This document shows positions 22,501 to 35,392 of a DNA stretch of 64,000 nt, piece after piece. The translations under genes were made by a program, and so were the position numbers. Source of the stretch: Macrostomum lignano (Eukaryota). Each line of letters opens with the position of its first letter. Within the stretch, counting starts at the first letter, position 1. The DNA is taken from contig NIVC01001863.1 of assembly GCA_002269645.1 (NCBI GenBank), forward strand, positions 164,066 to 228,065, written 5' to 3'. The notes beneath the pieces were generated by a model. It saw only the letters and a program-made list of their open reading frames with translations, was not told where the DNA came from and searched no databases.

Positions 22501-24394
22501 GTCTAAAGGGAGCAAGCAAGGCACGCAAATAAAATAAAGAAAAAGTAAAATATTACAAGAGGCCCCTCTTCTTCAGCCAACCATTGGCTGGTTTGATTTA
22601 ACGTCTTACGTTTGAGACTTGTTCCATGGCTTGTCATTAAGAACAAAAGACACAACAGTGGCGTCGCAGCAAAGGGAATAAAGCTGAGACCGAAGGATGG
22701 CACAACCAACACCAGCAGCTGAGAAGATGGCATCTCCGGCAAAGTTGGCAGCAAAGACAGCGAGTAAGGATATGACAATGTGCCACTGCTTTCGAGTCTG
22801 GAAGGAATCGGCCAAACTGCACAATTCCACCAGCCAATGATCGGAAACAACATGCTCAACATGATCGTCATTGAGAAGCTGGAGGAAGGAAAGTCGTTTC
22901 TACGATGGATGGAACGCTTCACAGTCGGGGAAAATCTCTTCAAATGGGGAGAGGAAGAAAAGGCGCAGATTTTGCTCATGCGTCTGTCTGCTGGTCTGTA
23001 CGACACTCTGGCGGATCATCTGGCTCCCACATTACCGAGCACAATGTCTTTCGAAGAGCTCAGCAAGGCGCTAAAGGAGATCCTGGTGCCTAAAACATAT
23101 GTCCTGTCTGAACGGTACGCCTTTCAAACTGCCAAGAAGGACGCAAAAGAGAGCATTCGAGCATTCGCTGAGAGGCTGCTCAAAGCGTCGGATAAATGTG
23201 CGTTTAGCAACAAGGAGGAACGGCTCCAGGACCAATTCATCTACCACCGCCTACCACCCGAGTGGCAACGGACAGGTGGAACGATTTAACGGGTTCCTGA
23301 AGAACAGTTTGCGCACGTATCTGGAACAGAAGGGTCAGAACGCCTGGGAGGAGTACCTGCCAAGTGCCTTGATGGCTTATCGATCGACGGTCCAGGCGTC
23401 CACCGGTTACACGCCCTACTACATGCTGCATGGTCAGGAGATGCCGCTGGGATTCGAACCAGAGGACCTTAGGCGAAAGACGGACAGCTATCCCTTGTTT
23501 GTGCAAGAGATCCAGCAGAACCTGCTTCATGCCCATGAACGCATTCGAGAAGGACGCGAGACGGTTCAGCGACGGCAGAAAATGAATTACGATCGGAAAG
23601 TGAAGGGCAAAGCGATTCAGAAGAGCGACTCTGTCTTGCTGTACTATCCGTGCTTGGAGATGGGAGAGAAAAGCAAGTTCCATATTAACTGGCGCGGCCC
23701 AGTGAAGGTCCTGGAGAAGCTGTCAGATGCGTTGTACCGAGTGCAGGATCCGACACAGAAGCAGAAGACCAAGGTGGTGCACTTCAACAATCTCCGGCCG
23801 GTTCAGGTTCAGACGGAGGCGGCAGACGGTCAAGAGACAGGAGAGGAAATTGGGAGGGCCAGTTCGGGAAAAACCAGACCGCGACGCGGTAACTCCGCTG
23901 CTGGACGAAGCCGAAGGCAGAGAGTGCAACGGGGCGAGACCCAGAGGTGGACCGCAGCGCGAGGGCCGCAGGACCAGAAATCCGAGCAAGAAGATGAAGA
24001 GTTTGAAGATCTTCAGCTGCGGTTTCAAGATCGAAGAAATAACGCTCCGCCGGACACCCGAAATCTGGCCAAAGACTGTGAGCCCGGACCTGAGCGTCGA
24101 GAAGCAGACGATGACGAAGAAGAGCACTACGATGAGGCGCGGTACGACGAGGAGCAGGACGAAGAGGATAAGGCAGAGCCGAACGACGCCAACGTACCCG
24201 AGCAGGAAGTGAGGACGGCACAGGAGGAAGCAGGGCGACCAAGACGTCTGCGGCGACCGCCGGATCGATTTGGGGTCCCGGTGTACCACTACTGAAGAAG
24301 GGTCCGGTGTACGGCGCTTGGATAGCCAAGGGGGAAGGGAGGTTCATGTCGTGCGTGTCTCATTGCTCATCGGAGTTAGGCCGGACTGTTACAG

Positions 24395-25381
24395 ATGGCG
24401 GACCTCTACGAGTGTCTTGGAGTGCAGCTGTGGGCGTCTGCGGCACAGATTCGGAAAGCGTTCTACGGTCGAGCACGCGAACTGCACCCTGACAAGAGCG
24501 CAACAGAGGAGACGCGGAAGAGATTCCTGGAGTGCGAAGAGGCGTACCGAATACTGTCGTGTCCGTTCCTTAGAAAGCTGTACGATATCTTTGGAAATGC
24601 TGTTCGTGACCGGGATGAGATGCTTCGGCTCGCAGAAGGAATGTTAGAGGATGACGACATGCCTGACGATCTCCGAGAAGAGATAGAAAGGCTACAAGAG
24701 AGCGACCGATTAGCTGAGGAGGCGTACGAGAGAGAACAGGCGAGGAGGGATGAGGAGCACGTCAAGATGGAGGCAAGTGAGGAGGCCTCAGACGATGAGC
24801 AGGATGAAGAGATGAACGAGGCGAGTGAGGCACTGCCGGAGGAGTACGAGGTCGAGAAGGTCTTAGGAGTACGAGTCACGGAGCGAGGAGCGGAGTATCT
24901 GCTGCAGTGGGCCGGTGTAGAGGAGCTTGAGACATCATGGGAAGCGGAGGAAGATTGTGCCGGATGTAGAAACCTGATTGAAGAATACCTGCAGAGAGCG
25001 TACCGGCTTCAGACAAGACCGTGCCGACCAGTGACCGTCGCGGAACTGGAGAACGTAGGACCCAGTCGGAAGAAACTGCACCAGGCAATGCGGAAGGGCG
25101 ACCCGTGGGGCATCTTTGAGGTGCTGCTAGCCCTGAAGGGGAAGTGCGCCACTGCCTCGGTGGATTTCAAGGAATTCGGTCCGGAGTTGATGCTGCAGAT
25201 CCTGGGCTACTTGGAGCGAGACGGTCGCAAGTATCCGGGGCACGGAGTCCGTCGGTGGAGTCGCCAAGCGTGTCAAGCGGTCCACATGTCGGTGATGGTG
25301 GTGTTCCCGCTGTTCGACCTGCGACGCCAGGGTTTGGTCCTGGGTGCCCTCCGTGGGCTGTGGGATTCGTGCTCTGACTGA
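24395..25381 (+). CDS. Retroelement-borne DnaJ domain + acidic linker + chromodomain protein (328 aa)
   Basis: J domain DLYECLGV...IRKAFYGRARELHPDK...FLECEEAYRILS..LRKLYD (HPD intact); chromodomain EEYEVEKVLGVR...YLLQWAGVEELETSWEAEEDC..CRNLIEEY; open, intronless. Confidence 0.85.
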   Translation: MADLYECLGVQLWASAAQIRKAFYGRARELHPDKSATEETRKRFLECEEAYRILSCPFLRKLYDIFGNAVRDRDEMLRLAEGMLEDDDMPDDLREEIERLQESDRLAEEAYEREQARRDEEHVKMEASEEASDDEQDEEMNEASEALPEEYEVEKVLGVRVTERGAEYLLQWAGVEELETSWEAEEDCAGCRNLIEEYLQRAYRLQTRPCRPVTVAELENVGPSRKKLHQAMRKGDPWGIFEVLLALKGKCATASVDFKEFGPELMLQILGYLERDGRKYPGHGVRRWSRQACQAVHMSVMVVFPLFDLRRQGLVLGALRGLWDSCSD

Positions 25382-25874
25382 GGCTGCGTCTTCCTAGGGA
25401 CTTTGGGGCTAGGGGCTTTGCAGTGCAGACCCAGGGACAGCGGAGCGGAGGTGGACCGGCCTTGACGGGTGCTGACGGAGCGACACGGCTGCGCAGCAAC
25501 GGCAAGACTCGACGACCAGGCGACCAGAGCAACCGGAGTCAGTTGCGACAGGGAGACCCGAGGCACCAGAGCGACGGCCGTACTCGGTGGGATTCAGGAA
25601 TGCAGTGCCAGTGTTACCGTACTTGTGAGGGTTTAATGGCTGACTATTTCTTTTTTCGTCTGGTTTTTTGTTGAGATTTTTCGGTTTTCTCTAATTTAGG
25701 TTTTTGCTTTGCTTCCCAACGATCCGTACTCACTATCCTATAATTGAGCGTTTTCTGCGTCATTTTAAACGGTATAATCACTGCGATTTTGTTTTCTTGT
25801 TCCTCTGTTCAATTTTTTGACATAGTAGTATCATTCGAATTTTCGAACTCGAACTTTAGTCTAGGGGGAGGGAG

Positions 25875-26568
25875 TGTCATGAATGTGTTATTATGACTGT
25901 GTGTACTTTGCTACTGTGCTACGCCGGGCCAGTTGGCCGTCCTCTCCCCCCTCCTGAGATATTTTCTGACTCACCCACCTGCACTTCTGCGCGTGCGTAC
26001 CCCCCCTCCCTGCCTAGGCCTTTTCCGTTTAGTCAAACCCCCCTTGCTCTGTGTGCGCCCCGTGCGACCCCGCCCCATTCTTTTGTTAGCTTTGCTGCCC
26101 CGCCCCTGTTTGTGATTGGCTGCCAGTCCCAGTCTGCCGTGCTGCGCCCCAGCGATTGGCTGGTACGGCTCATGTTTTTCCTATGCTGATGTCTAAGCCC
26201 CCTTTTCTGCCTTTATCCCGCGCCCTCAACCCCCAGTTTGCTGCCTATTTATTCGGACCCCCTTGAGACCCCATTCTCGTCGTCGTCGTGGCTCCCCGGT
26301 GATAGTGCCAGCGTTAATTGCGATACAAATACAATTAAAAGAATACCGATCAATACTACCACTGCTCTGACGGCGCTGTGTCTTGTTGTACGACCGAAAT
26401 CGCGGCTGGTAAGCCTTCCAATTTGCAAGTCATTTGGGTCTGCCTCTGTACTAGGCACCTTAGGAGGATTAAGTGCGTCGTACGCCGGTCCCACCCCAAG
26501 CAGCTCTGCGTCGTACGCGAGTCTGTAGGCTGTCGTGCGTCGTACGCTCGAGCAGCCTAGTCCCGACA
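25875..26568 (+). repeat. 3' LTR of Gypsy element B (~694 bp)
   Basis: Starts TGTC directly after the polypurine tract, ends GACA directly before the resumed gag of element A; ATTAAA near 26335. Confidence 0.72.
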
Positions 26569-27735
26569 TACACCGCGTCGTACGCGTGTCAGTGGAGGAC
26601 CGCAGCCAGGGTCAGTACGCGAACCCGGGTCTGGGAAAGGGGCACGAAAGGACCGAGCCCTTGAGCCCCATCACCACACTGTCAAAACCGATCCCGCCTA
26701 AAGGAGACAAGAAGTGCCCTCGTTGTGGTGGCAACCAACATCCAAAGACAGCATGTCCAGCTATGGGAAAACCTGCAAGAGGTGCGGTAAGCCAAACCAC
26801 TTTCAAAAGGCATGTCGGTCAAGCGTATCCGGTCAACAGAACTTTGTGCCTCAGGATTCTGCAGAAAAGGAACATTTTGCACACTGACACTGGCAGAGAA
26901 GCGTCGTGCTCTACAGTGAAGATGGCATGTCAAGTAGAAGGCAAAATGCAATCCATAATCTGTCAGATTGACACGGGAGCTTCAGTTTCAGTTCTGTCCA
27001 GCAAGCTGTGGTGGATATTTGGAAAGCCGAAGTTGCAAGGTAGCACCTCGACTTTGGTGGGCTACACTGACGGACACAAATTCGACCAATTCGGTTCACT
27101 GCCTGTCGTCACGGAATGGAAAGGAAGGATAATCAAGATTACGTTTCAAGTAGTACGCTCAAACCGCAACTTTGCATTGCTCGGACGAGATGTCATCAAA
27201 TTCAATCCGGAATGCGTCTCTATCGGACATACATACGCTCGTAGATGAAGGATTCGGTTCCGTTCAAGGCAAGCTTACGATTAGTCGATGGCGCTGTGCA
27301 AAAGTACATCAAAGCAAGGCCTGTGCCATTTGCATTGCGCGAGCGTCTGAAATGCGAGATCGACAAGCTTGTGACTAACGGAGTTAACGATCAGGTTATC
27401 TTTTCGCACTGGGCGTCAATTAACGTAGACAAAATCTCTACCATAAAATAGGAAGATTTTCATGTTCCTTTACTATAAGTAGGCCAGGTAAATAATGGTA
27501 GTAATAGTGATCTATTGATTAAACCGGTAGTTTAAAGTAAAACAAATGTCACAATCCCCACTAAAACGCGCAGCAGTTGCTGTTACAGCTTCAGTGCAAA
27601 AAACGAATACTGCAGTATCCAAAAAAAATAAACTGGAATCATTTTCATGTTCCATGACGGGACATTTCTGGGTGCAGTTTTTTTGCGTCTGCCGGGTTGG
27701 GGGTGCTCGGGCAGGCAGGCAGCGGCAGGCAGGGA

Positions 27736-31652: not shown

Positions 31653-34600
31653 GTGTGCCCAATTATTCCAACTTTATTTTCTGATGAACCATGTCGATTC
31701 CAATTAATTAAAGAAGCATTTTTCGGCCAGTCGCGACTCTATCGGCGAATCGTTGCCGGCGATCCCATCGACGCCCTGGAGTCATCCATTGCTTCAGGCA
31801 CAGAACTCCTGGCAGATCTGCGTTCAAAACCAGGCTTTGCCATCAAGGTGCAAATCCGACTCGGTGTGTCTATGCAGCGTTGGGCTGGTGGCCGTTTTGT
31901 GGCGCAGAGCACAGCCTGGTTTGCCAGTGAAACGGCCGAAGTCCTTTCAGATGAGGAAGAAGATTTCTTTGTTCGGGAAATCCCATTTATTTTGGAACGA
32001 CTGAGCAAATACCTTCGCAATGGCAGTGGGTGGACAATTGACTCCACTCGCTGCGTAGATCTTTCCATTGTAAGATATCAGTTGCCTCATGGCTCAGGTA
32101 TAAGTCCAACTCATTTGAACTTCCACCAAAGCTAAAGGCTAAAAGGGCAGTCATGAATGCCTACTCCAGTGGAAACGACTGTCTGAAATATGCCGTTCTG
32201 TCTGCATTGCACGCAGACCGTGTCAGCAGTGAGAAGCCTTTGCGACGCTCCACTTTCCGTGAGTGGGAAGACGAACTCCGTTGGGACAATGTTCCTTTCC
32301 CTGCCAACATGAATGATCTGGGCCGAGTGGAGAAGAACAATCCAGGATTGGCCATCTCGGCCTTCAAATGGACTAACGGCCATGCCCAGTGCGACTTCAG
32401 GAATGGCGACCTCACCGATTGAATTGATCCTGCTTCTATTGGTTACCACTGATGCCGGCAACCATTGGTGTGTGCTATTGCTAACCTAGATCGTCTAATG
32501 AACAGTCACGACGCACATAAATATCGTTGGTGCGATCGCTGTCTAGGCAAGTTCCGGACGGTTGAGTCTCTATCCGTTCATAGACGGCGGTGCATGGGCC
32601 GTAAGGATAGCATGGAGGAGGTGATGCCAAAGGATAAAACACTGAGATTCAAGGCATGGCACAAAACACTCTCCCCACCTCATGTCATCTATGCAGATTT
32701 TGAAGCAATGATGTCCCCCATAAACGATGAGCTAGATGGCTGTGCTACCTTTAAGACCACACACCACCTACCAGCCGCTGCCGGATTCCTTATTGTCCAA
32801 AGAAGTGACGTAGCTGGGCCTCCCTCCACTCTCCGAACGTCCTATGTATGCAACTGTTTTCAAAGTCGGGTGAGTGCATGATGCACTTCCTACAGGCACT
32901 TGATGCTGTCGCCATTGCAGCATACAAGTGGAATGCGCGACATAGTCATTACCCTGCCATTCGCTCTGTCCAGGAGGAAGAGCAGTTCCAGACTGCCACT
33001 CATTGCTGCTTGTGCGAGAAAGCTCTTGTTGACGATCGCCACTTCCATCATGATCATCTCAATGGCAAGTTTTTGGGTGCTGCATGCCCGTCATTTTATG
33101 AGTCAGCTGTTCTCAAGCGCGACTTTCTTCCAATCTTTTTTTCATAATTTCCGAGGTTATGATTCACACTTGTTGTGCAGCACAGTGATCGGTCGTATGA
33201 AACATTGGGAACTAAGTGTCATTGCACAAACAAAGGAGCGCTACATGACTCTAGAGTCCCGTATACCTATTGAGTCGGTTTATGACTTATCTAAAGATCG
33301 TTTGGTGCCGAAATTCATGCGTCTGCGTTTTCTCGACTCTTTCCAGTTCATGGCGTCGAGTCTTGCTCAATTAGTGCGCAATCTAACCCCGGTAGACTGT
33401 CACTACACGTTGGAGATGCAGCAGCGATATCCACTCGCCTCCACCGAAGTCCTACTGCGGAAGGGGGTGTTCCCCTATTCCTATGCCACTAGCGATTCGA
33501 ATTTAGATGAGCAGCAGCTCCCATCCCAAGAAGCTTTTGCCAACGACTTGAACAATGAGCCGTGCAACGATCAGGACTATGCAACTGCCCAGTGTGCCTG
33601 GAGAGAGTTTGGGTGTAACACACTGCGTGATTACATGCTTGCATACCTTGAAATGGACATTCGCCATCTCGCTCATGTGTTCGAGGCCTTTCGTCGAATG
33701 AGCCTCACTTCGGATGGGGTAGACCCAGTGCATTTTATAACGACGCCGGGAATGTCTTTCGAAGCAGCGCTTAAGTACTGTAAACTGGAGCTTGAATTGC
33801 TGCAATGTCCAGAGTTGTACAGCTTATTTGAAGAGGGTACTCGTGGTGGTATGACATTTGTCAACACATATAAAGCCAATGCCAACCATCCCGGACTCGG
33901 TGAGCTGTATGATTCACATCAACCTCAAAGCTATCTTATCCCTATTGACGCCAACAACCTCTACGGACACGCCTTGTCCACCAAACTGCCATGGTGCGGG
34001 TTCCAAGTGCTTGACACTGTGCCACCAAACGGTGAGGTTGAGAGTTGGATCAGGGATGAGTTTGACCCAGAAGGGGATGTTGGGTACTTGCTAAAGGTTG
34101 ATCTCCGTTGCCCTCCGGAGTTGCACGACAAGACATCAGACTTGCCCCTTGCTCCAGAGAAGGCGCAGCCTCAGTGGGAATGGATGCCGCCGCATCAGCA
34201 GCAGCTCTGGGAACTACTATCTAGTCAGAGGATCTCTTGTGGAGGATATAATTCAGGAGGCGACAAGTTGATGTTGACATGCTTTGATAAAACCAACTAT
34301 GTTGTACACGCCAGAATCCTACAGTTTTATCTCTGTCTAGGTCTTAGGCTGCGTACTGTCCACTGCATTGTTCGCTTTCAGCAAGCAGCAGTGCTCGAGC
34401 CTTACATTCAGCGTAATAGTGAGCGGCGTGCACAAGCCAAAAGTGAGTTTGAAAAGGATTATAATAAGCTGCTGAACAACTTTCTGTTTGGGAAGACCAT
34501 GGAGAACGTGCGCAATCGCGTTGACTACCGCCTGGTCAACTCAGCAGAGAAGTTGGAGAAGCTCGCAGCGAAACCTAACTTTGAAGATCAACAGATATTT

Positions 34601-35392
34601 AATGAGAATCTTGTTCTGGTCCACATGCGTACGACAACAGTCGAGCTCAACAAACCAGTGTACATCTGGCAATGTGTCCTTGATAACAGCAAGCTCATTA
34701 TGTACAGCTTGTGGTATGATAAACTGCTTCCGCTGGTCAATCAGTTACAGTGTGCGAGCCTCAGTCTGCTCGGCGGTGACACTGACTCCTTCTTCCTCCA
34801 CTTAAAGAATGCTGGTGGCGAGCGATGGTTTCTACCTGAACTGTGCGAAATGGAGCTGCTGGACACCTCTAATTATCCCAAGGACCACTGCTTGTATAGT
34901 TGCAAACGCAAAGCAAGGTTAGGCTGTGTAAAGGATGAGAGCGATGGCACAGCGAACTTTTATAAGTGGATCCTGTTGCGTCCCAAGCTCTATTCCTTTG
35001 CTGCAGTAAACTCCTCCAAGGACAAGCGTCGTGCTAAGGGTGTGCAGCGATCTGTAGTGCAAAATGAAATCTGCCACGCCGACTACTGCGAAACTTTGAT
35101 GAAAATGGAAGAAAAGTCCTGGCTGACGCGTCGTATTGCCTGTGAGCATCATGAGTTGTTCACCACTGCCACCTTGAAACGCGCACTCTCGTTTTGGGAG
35201 GACAAGAGGGCATGGCTCGCGGCAAATCAGAGCCTACCCTACGGCCACTGGCGTCTAGAGGCAGAGAAGCGAAAGCGACCCTGCCCGTTTGACAACAATG
35301 TAGAATTTCATGCACTCATTCGTGTAAAAATGAAATACTTCAAATACATGTATTTTGTGCAAAAGTATGTAAGTTTTCGTGCACAGTGTTAA
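31653..35392 (+). pseudogene. Protein-primed family B DNA polymerase (pPolB) with endonuclease-VII-like segment; several frameshifts in the 5' half
   Basis: NGSGWTI; NDCLKYAVLSALH; HVIYADFEAM (ExoI); CCLCEK..HHDHLNGKFLGAAC; HNFRGYDSH (ExoII); IDANNLYGHAL; KLLNNFLFGKTMEN; GGDTDS; KGV. Reading moves across ORFs 31653, 32153, 32465, 32848 and 32900. Confidence 0.88.

Follow-up and report, generated by a model that had tools for sequence, protein, structure and literature searches.

Animal LTR retrotransposons are not known to encode much besides gag, pol and, in some cases, env. The locus described here raises the question of what an intact additional gene, encoding a J domain and a chromodomain, is doing in a Gypsy element of Macrostomum lignano. 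The gene, termed ORF3, is an uninterrupted frame of 328 aa belonging to an element family designated A, and it occupies positions 24395-25381 (+) of the window, that is, of the whole 64,000-nucleotide stretch analysed (contig NIVC01001863.1). An earlier note on this DNA had proposed that the ORF3 protein brings Hsp70 to methylated chromatin. The features of the locus, in window coordinates, are as follows.

22768-23247 (+): gag-like piece of another Gypsy element, outside family A, that hosts the nested copy (weak Pfam DUF7083/PNMA match; the full family-A element does not match here)
23248-24295 (+): 3' part of the integrase, same element as ORF3 (Pfam and match to the full element)
24389-24394 (+): putative splice-acceptor-like YAG abutting the ATG (from the sequence)
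24395-25381 (+): ORF3, 328 aa, accessory gene of a Gypsy element of family A (translation, Pfam and copy comparison)
24401-24586 (+): J domain, aa 3-64, with HPD at aa 31-33 (Pfam PF00226, E 6e-15)
24587-24694 (+): helical extension following the J domain, kept across families (family alignment and structure prediction)
24695-24844 (+): acidic variable linker (D/E count; low pLDDT from aa 126)
24845-24997 (+): HP1-type chromodomain, aa 151-201, cage Y151/W172/V175 (Pfam Chromo, E 1e-12, and alignments)
25037-25378 (+): conserved C-terminal domain of five helices and a basic loop (family alignment and predicted fold; no match to a known family or fold)
25863-25874 (+): polypurine tract (sequence)
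25875-26678 (+): 3' LTR, 804 nt, TG...CA (comparison among copies)
26679-27248 (+): zinc knuckle/protease piece of the same other Gypsy element (Pfam and ORFs)

ORF3 lies in the env position, as had been claimed, between the integrase stop at 24295, from which its ATG is separated by 99 nt, and the polypurine tract at 25863 with the 3' LTR. The match to the full family-A element begins only at 23248, the 5' 5.2 kb being absent, and of the hallmarks of LTR elements this copy retains only the polypurine tract and the 3' LTR. Since pieces of another Gypsy element flank it on both sides (gag-like upstream, protease-like downstream), the window copy is a 5'-truncated one nested inside a different Gypsy element. 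The earlier argument that ORF3 stays open although the surrounding transposon genes are broken carries little weight, as the integrase piece at 23248-24295 is also open. Elsewhere in the window, by eye, we noted an 836-aa frame resembling the protein-primed type-B DNA polymerase of Polinton-like elements (32882-35392, +), frames of an ABCA-type transporter (50702-55457, -) and a single-exon GPCR-like frame (58335-59480, -).

The two named domains recognised earlier, an HPD-intact J domain and a chromodomain with the cage Tyr and Trp kept and the third aromatic replaced by Val, both score above the curated Pfam cut-offs. The Asp/Glu-rich linker of about 80 aa was borne out in part: an acidic stretch exists (31 D/E in 66 residues, aa 85-150), but aa 65-100 of the roughly 85 aa concerned belong to the conserved helical extension. 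Similarly, a C-terminal domain is present, at about 114 aa (215-328) rather than about 130 aa. Structural superposition of the modelled J domain on solved ones gave Z 11.9 with an rmsd of 1.4 across 71 aa, and the combination of a J fold bearing HPD with the absence of class A/B domains places the protein among the class C J-domain proteins. In specialised J proteins, a J domain with intact HPD brings Hsp70 to the partners bound by the rest of the protein, and on this family background the HPD-bearing members are probably Hsp70 recruiters.

A comparison of the chromodomain with the PDB gave 27 matches (best E 2e-10), headed by Swi6 and HP1/CBX proteins, and its best matches in the genome outside the elements are HP1-type genes, at 28-33% identity with nine invariant columns that include two Cys. 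As the closest matches in both comparisons are heterochromatin readers of the host type, the simplest reading would be that the chromodomain was captured from a host HP1 gene. Two of the three host HP1-type genes examined have a chromoshadow-like region (by eye); a Pfam scan of ORF3 found no chromoshadow domain and the C-terminal domain is all-helical, so that ORF3 is not itself an HP1 protein. The cage residues are Y/W/V in family A, Y/W/L in an outside protein (P0003) and F/W/F in the related family B; the cage is complete in B and in all three host HP1-type loci, and family A and P0003 thus lack the three-aromatic methyl-lysine cage. In the full-length structural model the chromodomain was left unfolded because the underlying alignment contained no chromodomain. 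As a separate observation, the assembly contains three or more divergent genes with an HP1-type chromodomain (L106, L107 and L108), at two to three places each.

For the C-terminal domain of a related family, D, five helices and a flexible basic loop are confidently predicted (pLDDT 87.8, pTM 0.82). An Arg-rich loop precedes a Trp in this domain in families A, D and E and in two further outside proteins, P0028 and P0035. The domain had no Pfam match; the profile search returned only designed proteins or weak matches, Foldseek gave nothing at E<=0.001 in PDB or BFVD, there was no match in the Atlas, and DNAJC9 was absent among the profile and fold matches. The best structural match, M-Sec (Z 8.3, rmsd 4.0), lies within the range of generic helical bundles. 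No membrane segment was predicted in any of seven ORF3 proteins (top 19-residue hydropathy 0.94-1.56), and no env family matched; despite its position, ORF3 is thus not an env.

A genome search located the chromodomain region of family A at 28 places on 27 contigs, with 96-100% identity, and the full-length ORF3 frame is open at 17 places, these copy counts being lower bounds; the M. lignano assembly has been described as redundant (PMC12801592). The integrase 3' end is present in 27 of the 28 other family-A loci, and the LTR end is reached in 24 of 29, with 20 distinct 14-nt insertion flanks. ORF3 is therefore tied to this integrase and this LTR. The possibility that it is confined to a single copy, as a one-off capture, does not survive the 28 places, the 20 flanks and the further families described below, and an intron-containing host gene is equally hard to reconcile with an intronless, element-linked frame. 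One complete copy (C245) measures 8542 bp, with LTRs of 833 and 834 nt that are 99.5% identical and a 4-bp target-site duplication (TSD), and contains in order an open gag frame that includes zinc knuckles, an open PR-RT-RH-INT frame of 1352 aa, and ORF3. Paired TG...CA LTRs, TSD, polypurine tract, gag zinc knuckle and the pol order PR-RT-RH-INT identify a Ty3/Gypsy element; family A is a young Gypsy LTR family with ORF3 as its third ORF. PNMA-like gag and Integrase_p58_C matches suggest that it may belong to Gmr1/Osvaldo. M. lignano Ty3 families have been placed in Mag, CsRN1, Gmr1/Osvaldo and Mdg3/Micropia (PMC12801592). In the 3' flank of one copy (C330, locus L015), the family-A LTR adjoins a coding sequence that by eye is MSH6-like, and a database gene model, P0155, joins MSH6-like, gag-pol and ORF3 pieces, with the junction matched in run X3.

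The same core follows the integrase in no fewer than six other Gypsy families (C, D, E, F, G and H): a J domain, its extension, an acidic linker and the unnamed five-helix C-terminal domain. The ORF begins 94-423 nt past the integrase stop in B, C, C2, D, E and G, and the same kind of ORF occurs in F and H; at two decayed D2 loci no integrase was found within the 1.5 kb examined. Between families the ORF3 proteins share 24-36% identity (24-29% with the window protein), compared to 46-55% for the integrase core, and HPDK is invariant in the eight family proteins aligned. The chromodomain is confined to families A and B plus P0003, which is 75% identical; P0003, P0028 and P0035 are the outside proteins carrying the C-terminal domain. 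In families G and H, a TatD-like domain is added to the J and C-terminal core (L096:1501-3213 (+), L045, L100, L098 and L111; Pfam E 5e-5 to 7e-8, with two of four matches above the cut-off), and its aligned metal-binding His and Glu-Thr-Asp positions are substituted. HPD is kept in family G and lost in family H, yet the whole frame of the latter is open at 10 places.

The idea of J plus chromodomain as the defining design did not hold up, as most related families lack the chromodomain while keeping the J and C-terminal domains. Judged from these comparisons, the conserved unit is J plus C-terminal domain with exchangeable modules, and the ancestral job does not require the reading of methylated histones. 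The gene, its linkage, its selection, its domain anatomy and its modularity can jointly be regarded as established with high confidence.

This core is not present everywhere. Among 10 loci chosen by integrase similarity, three carry J and C-terminal domains, one the TatD-like part only, three have an intact integrase end without ORF3, and three are cut by other insertions or the contig end. Two of the relatives without ORF3 fall as sisters, L097 to family E and L099 to family H, in an integrase tree whose backbone is unresolved, which suggests that ORF3 was lost along the lineage. Integrase and ORF3 trees, both with unresolved backbones, agree only on G+H and on D+D'. Family B (L030 and L036) is 94% identical to A in the RT region and about 56-59% in protein over the 5' two thirds of ORF3, while the last third of ORF3 and the 3' UTR share 86-88% DNA identity with A; by this mosaic family B looks recombinant. 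Both B loci carry a 640-nt insertion at the identical place in ORF3, which was considered as an intron and rejected, L037 being continuous there; we read it as a nested insertion. An F-box ORF that follows a related Gypsy integrase (L102:2178-2900 (+)) was also rejected as an element gene: it belongs to a host tandem family with more than 40 matches and is near-identical at two places only. In database searches, a profile of the C-terminal domain found two Macrostomum proteins among 8000 candidates; another profile search of the protein database was dominated by bacterial DnaJ. Metagenome and viral scans for the context of the outside members returned 0 of 146, 49 of 238 (J-domain-only matches) and 0 of 6, and added no context.

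Young copies may be open simply from youth, and ORF3 could accordingly be a passenger with no function, a fragment taken from the host and carried along in recent insertions. The variants speak otherwise. Within family A, ORF3 shows 23 synonymous variants at about 224 sites and 9 non-synonymous ones at about 760 (binomial p 5e-9, from a test in which the copies are non-independent and transition bias lies outside the model); the count covers 14 of 15 full-length copies and 12 distinct sequences, one copy without the start motif used being omitted. Between A and B, dN/dS is 0.22-0.24 for ORF3 and 0.22 for the chromodomain, at a dS of about 1.5. The values are 0.24 for D versus D' (integrase 0.275), 0.18-0.19 for D versus D2 and 0.16 for C versus C2, where the J domain with its extension reaches 0.08 and the C-terminal domain 0.24. 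For H versus H' they are 0.33 overall and 0.16 in the C-terminal domain; the pseudo-J (0.60) and the TatD-like part (0.66) rest on few changes and are both non-significant. Integrase values within family A and for C versus C2 were excluded on account of out-of-frame alignment. Neutral evolution, which the earlier note had named as an outcome contrary to its reading, is thus not what is seen, either within A or between families (0.16-0.24), and ORF3 is under purifying selection. With dN/dS of 0.08-0.25 across pairs at dS up to about 1.5-1.8, where saturation is near and the estimates are rough, and with the same frame, start and domain order in at least seven families, the passenger reading is very improbable and may be considered already refuted, barring alignment artefacts.

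With respect to expression, a YAG or AAG lies directly 5' of the ATG in A, in one of two B copies, and in C, C2 and D, and one base earlier in F; no acceptor directly precedes the ATG in E and H. Family A has a donor-like site in the leader, 67 nt upstream of the gag ATG. Contigs from four runs (three guessed to be RNA) span 29-30 of 30 bins and cross the ORF3 start without a joint; such contigs show presence only and are uninformative on expression or splicing. The one long joint (2111-4379 of L047) was rejected as an intron, since it corresponds to a genomic deletion in locus L022.

What, then, might the protein do? Polyomavirus T antigen and DNAJC9 direct Hsp70, by way of a J domain, to a host complex or to histones; these are not retroelement proteins, and the profile and fold searches showed no homology to ORF3 beyond the J domain. 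On the reading we favour, ORF3 would be an accessory gene that a single lineage of Gypsy LTR elements has kept for long, and its product a dedicated J-domain co-chaperone. The protein would probably be translated from a spliced subgenomic RNA of its own and would act in trans. Its J domain would recruit and activate host Hsp70, the helical C-terminal domain might hold a client or nucleic acid, and the swappable modules (the HP1-derived chromodomain in A/B, the TatD-like domain in G/H) may bias the site of action. The target would most likely be the machinery with which the host silences the chromatin or RNA of the element; Hsp70 would loosen this machinery, presumably in the nucleus, so that the element remains expressed. 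Conflict with host silencing is favoured by the fast divergence of ORF3, its dispensability in sister elements and the apparent capture of an HP1-type reader. We accordingly put forward a co-chaperone aiming host Hsp70 at silencing complexes as a tentative reading, with somewhat less than an even chance of being right. The fuller version, a counter-defence platform evolved by the lineage, recruiting Hsp70 through a J domain beside a new helical domain, retargeted by captured host modules (a chromodomain from HP1 of the silencing machinery and a TatD domain with eroded catalysis) and stripping silencing complexes from element chromatin or RNA in the animal, is more doubtful still.

Several observations count against such an anti-silencing role: close relatives exist without ORF3, families E and H lack the acceptor, and the cages of A and P0003 lack the third aromatic. 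As most families carry no chromodomain, chromatin reading is not the core job, and since family H retains open frames without HPD, Hsp70 recruitment is dispensable in that branch. The lost HPD of H and the missing third cage aromatic of A both weigh against the specific model of Hsp70 delivery to methylated chromatin.

Host-encoded parallels are available in plants. SUVH1/3-DNAJ1/2, a mark reader with J proteins, counters silencing (PMC12902148), MBD5/6-SILENZIO joins a reader to a J protein and works with HSP70 (PMC8616336), and PKL-JDP is a further reader-J pair (10.64898/2026.09.14.751395). These precedents cut both ways, as two of the three promote silencing. They share with ORF3 the coupling of a mark reader to a J protein, altering silencing, but are multi-protein complexes of the host, while ORF3 is encoded by the element. 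VANC21 shows that a transposon can encode an anti-silencer, but its source is a DNA transposon, and the sources covered do not call it a J protein.

A different kind of role, only slightly less likely than the anti-silencing one, is a chaperone for the replication cycle, with ORF3 bringing Hsp70 to the element's own products and the chromodomain being a late add-on that tethers the protein near silent chromatin. The step served could be export of unspliced genomic RNA through the basic loop (in the manner of CERV or Rev), particle assembly or uncoating, or activation of RT. The universal part of the protein is J plus C-terminal domain, most families having no chromodomain, the Arg-rich loop before the Trp recurs in A, D, E, P0028 and P0035, and TatD-like modules with replaced metal-binding His, Glu and Asp suggest nucleic-acid binding. 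CERV of the C. elegans element Cer1, likewise an accessory protein of an animal Gypsy element, of nuclear type and made from spliced RNA, is required for genomic RNA export (PMC10309623); no J domain or chromodomain is described for it in the part of that source covered. However, sister elements manage without ORF3, which implies that no essential step is served, and its rapid divergence relative to the integrase core, with module swapping, looks more like host conflict.

The protein could also act as a decoy or antagonist without Hsp70 catalysis, its J domain and chromodomain being binding mimics that titrate a host factor such as HP1 partners or PIWI-loading chaperones. Degraded-looking modules are indeed retained, with HPD lost in H, the cage eroded in A and TatD-like residues replaced in G/H. 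We consider this improbable: HPDK is invariant in all eight aligned proteins, HPD is present in G, and the J domain with its extension is the most constrained part.

Similarly improbable is an integration guide in trans, whose chromodomain would steer the integration complex towards chromatin methylated at H3K9, much as the chromodomain of chromoviruses acts in cis. Purifying selection on the chromodomain fits this, as does the location of the window copy and its neighbours in repeat-rich DNA. However, the chromodomain sits on a separate ORF rather than on the integrase and accounts for A/B only, the cage is incomplete, the J domain is given no role, and one copy adjoins the MSH6-like coding sequence. 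Chromoviruses (PMC6317226, PMC3605345) are likewise Gypsy elements with a chromodomain whose cage is often eroded, but theirs lies at the integrase C-terminus, while in family A it is HP1-like and lies beside a J domain in a separate protein. The 1352-aa pol frame of family A gave no Chromo match and is divided from ORF3 by a stop and 99 nt, so that it lacks the feature defining chromoviruses.

The closest parallels in position are the ORF3s of bdelloid rotifer LTR elements (GDSL esterase and DEDDy exonuclease; PMC5408684), which are likewise family-specific third ORFs between pol and the 3' LTR, captured from domains of host type and both gained and lost along the tree, and which are typically expressed from spliced RNA. 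They differ in domain content, the M. lignano genes combining J and an apparently new helical domain with a chromodomain or TatD-like domain, and the word 'DnaJ' does not occur in PMC5408684. As a separate sense ORF between pol and the 3' LTR that a lineage shares, the M. lignano gene belongs with the non-envelope ORF3s of LTR elements.

As to novelty, the view that the architecture is uncatalogued stood only for the literature. A 98% identical protein in NCBI, a hypothetical protein of Macrostomum lignano, already carries the precomputed pair DnaJ and Chromo, and two unrelated predicted proteins among 274 (P0072 and P0146) pair a J domain with a chromodomain but lack the C-terminal domain; these two may be host genes or mis-predictions. 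The full-text literature, exclusive of subscription journals, Repbase and GyDB, yielded no description of a retrotransposon ORF with a J domain. The terms DnaJ, ORF and chromo do not occur in the main text of the M. lignano LTR survey (PMC12801592), and DnaJ is unmentioned in the parts covered of an accessory-domain review (PMC6338049) and of a plant survey (PMC6317226), whose eORF-domain supplement, lying beyond those parts, may bear on this. ORF3 is a real, selected and lineage-wide accessory gene that is apparently undescribed.

Transposon-encoded counter-defence proteins are, to our knowledge, known mostly from plant DNA transposons. A putative co-chaperone that selection has maintained throughout a lineage of Gypsy elements, and that unites an apparently new folded domain with targeting modules that were exchanged, may represent a new way for transposons to manipulate the host by recruiting a chaperone. 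The families form a natural comparative series (with chromodomain, without it, with a TatD-like domain, without HPD and lacking ORF3 altogether). Since RNAi and transgenesis are available in this worm, the series makes it possible to test if an animal retrotransposon directs Hsp70 at host silencing, and by what means, or employs it in its own replication.

Finally, the LTR and 3' regions scanned in A, C, D, E and H (508 nt only in H) contain no canonical triple HSE, and five ORF3 start motifs were unmatched in the truncated sequences covered of supplement 5 of PMC12801592. The same survey describes Mlig-id38 as a heat-induced family, and some other ORF3 family may be identical to it.
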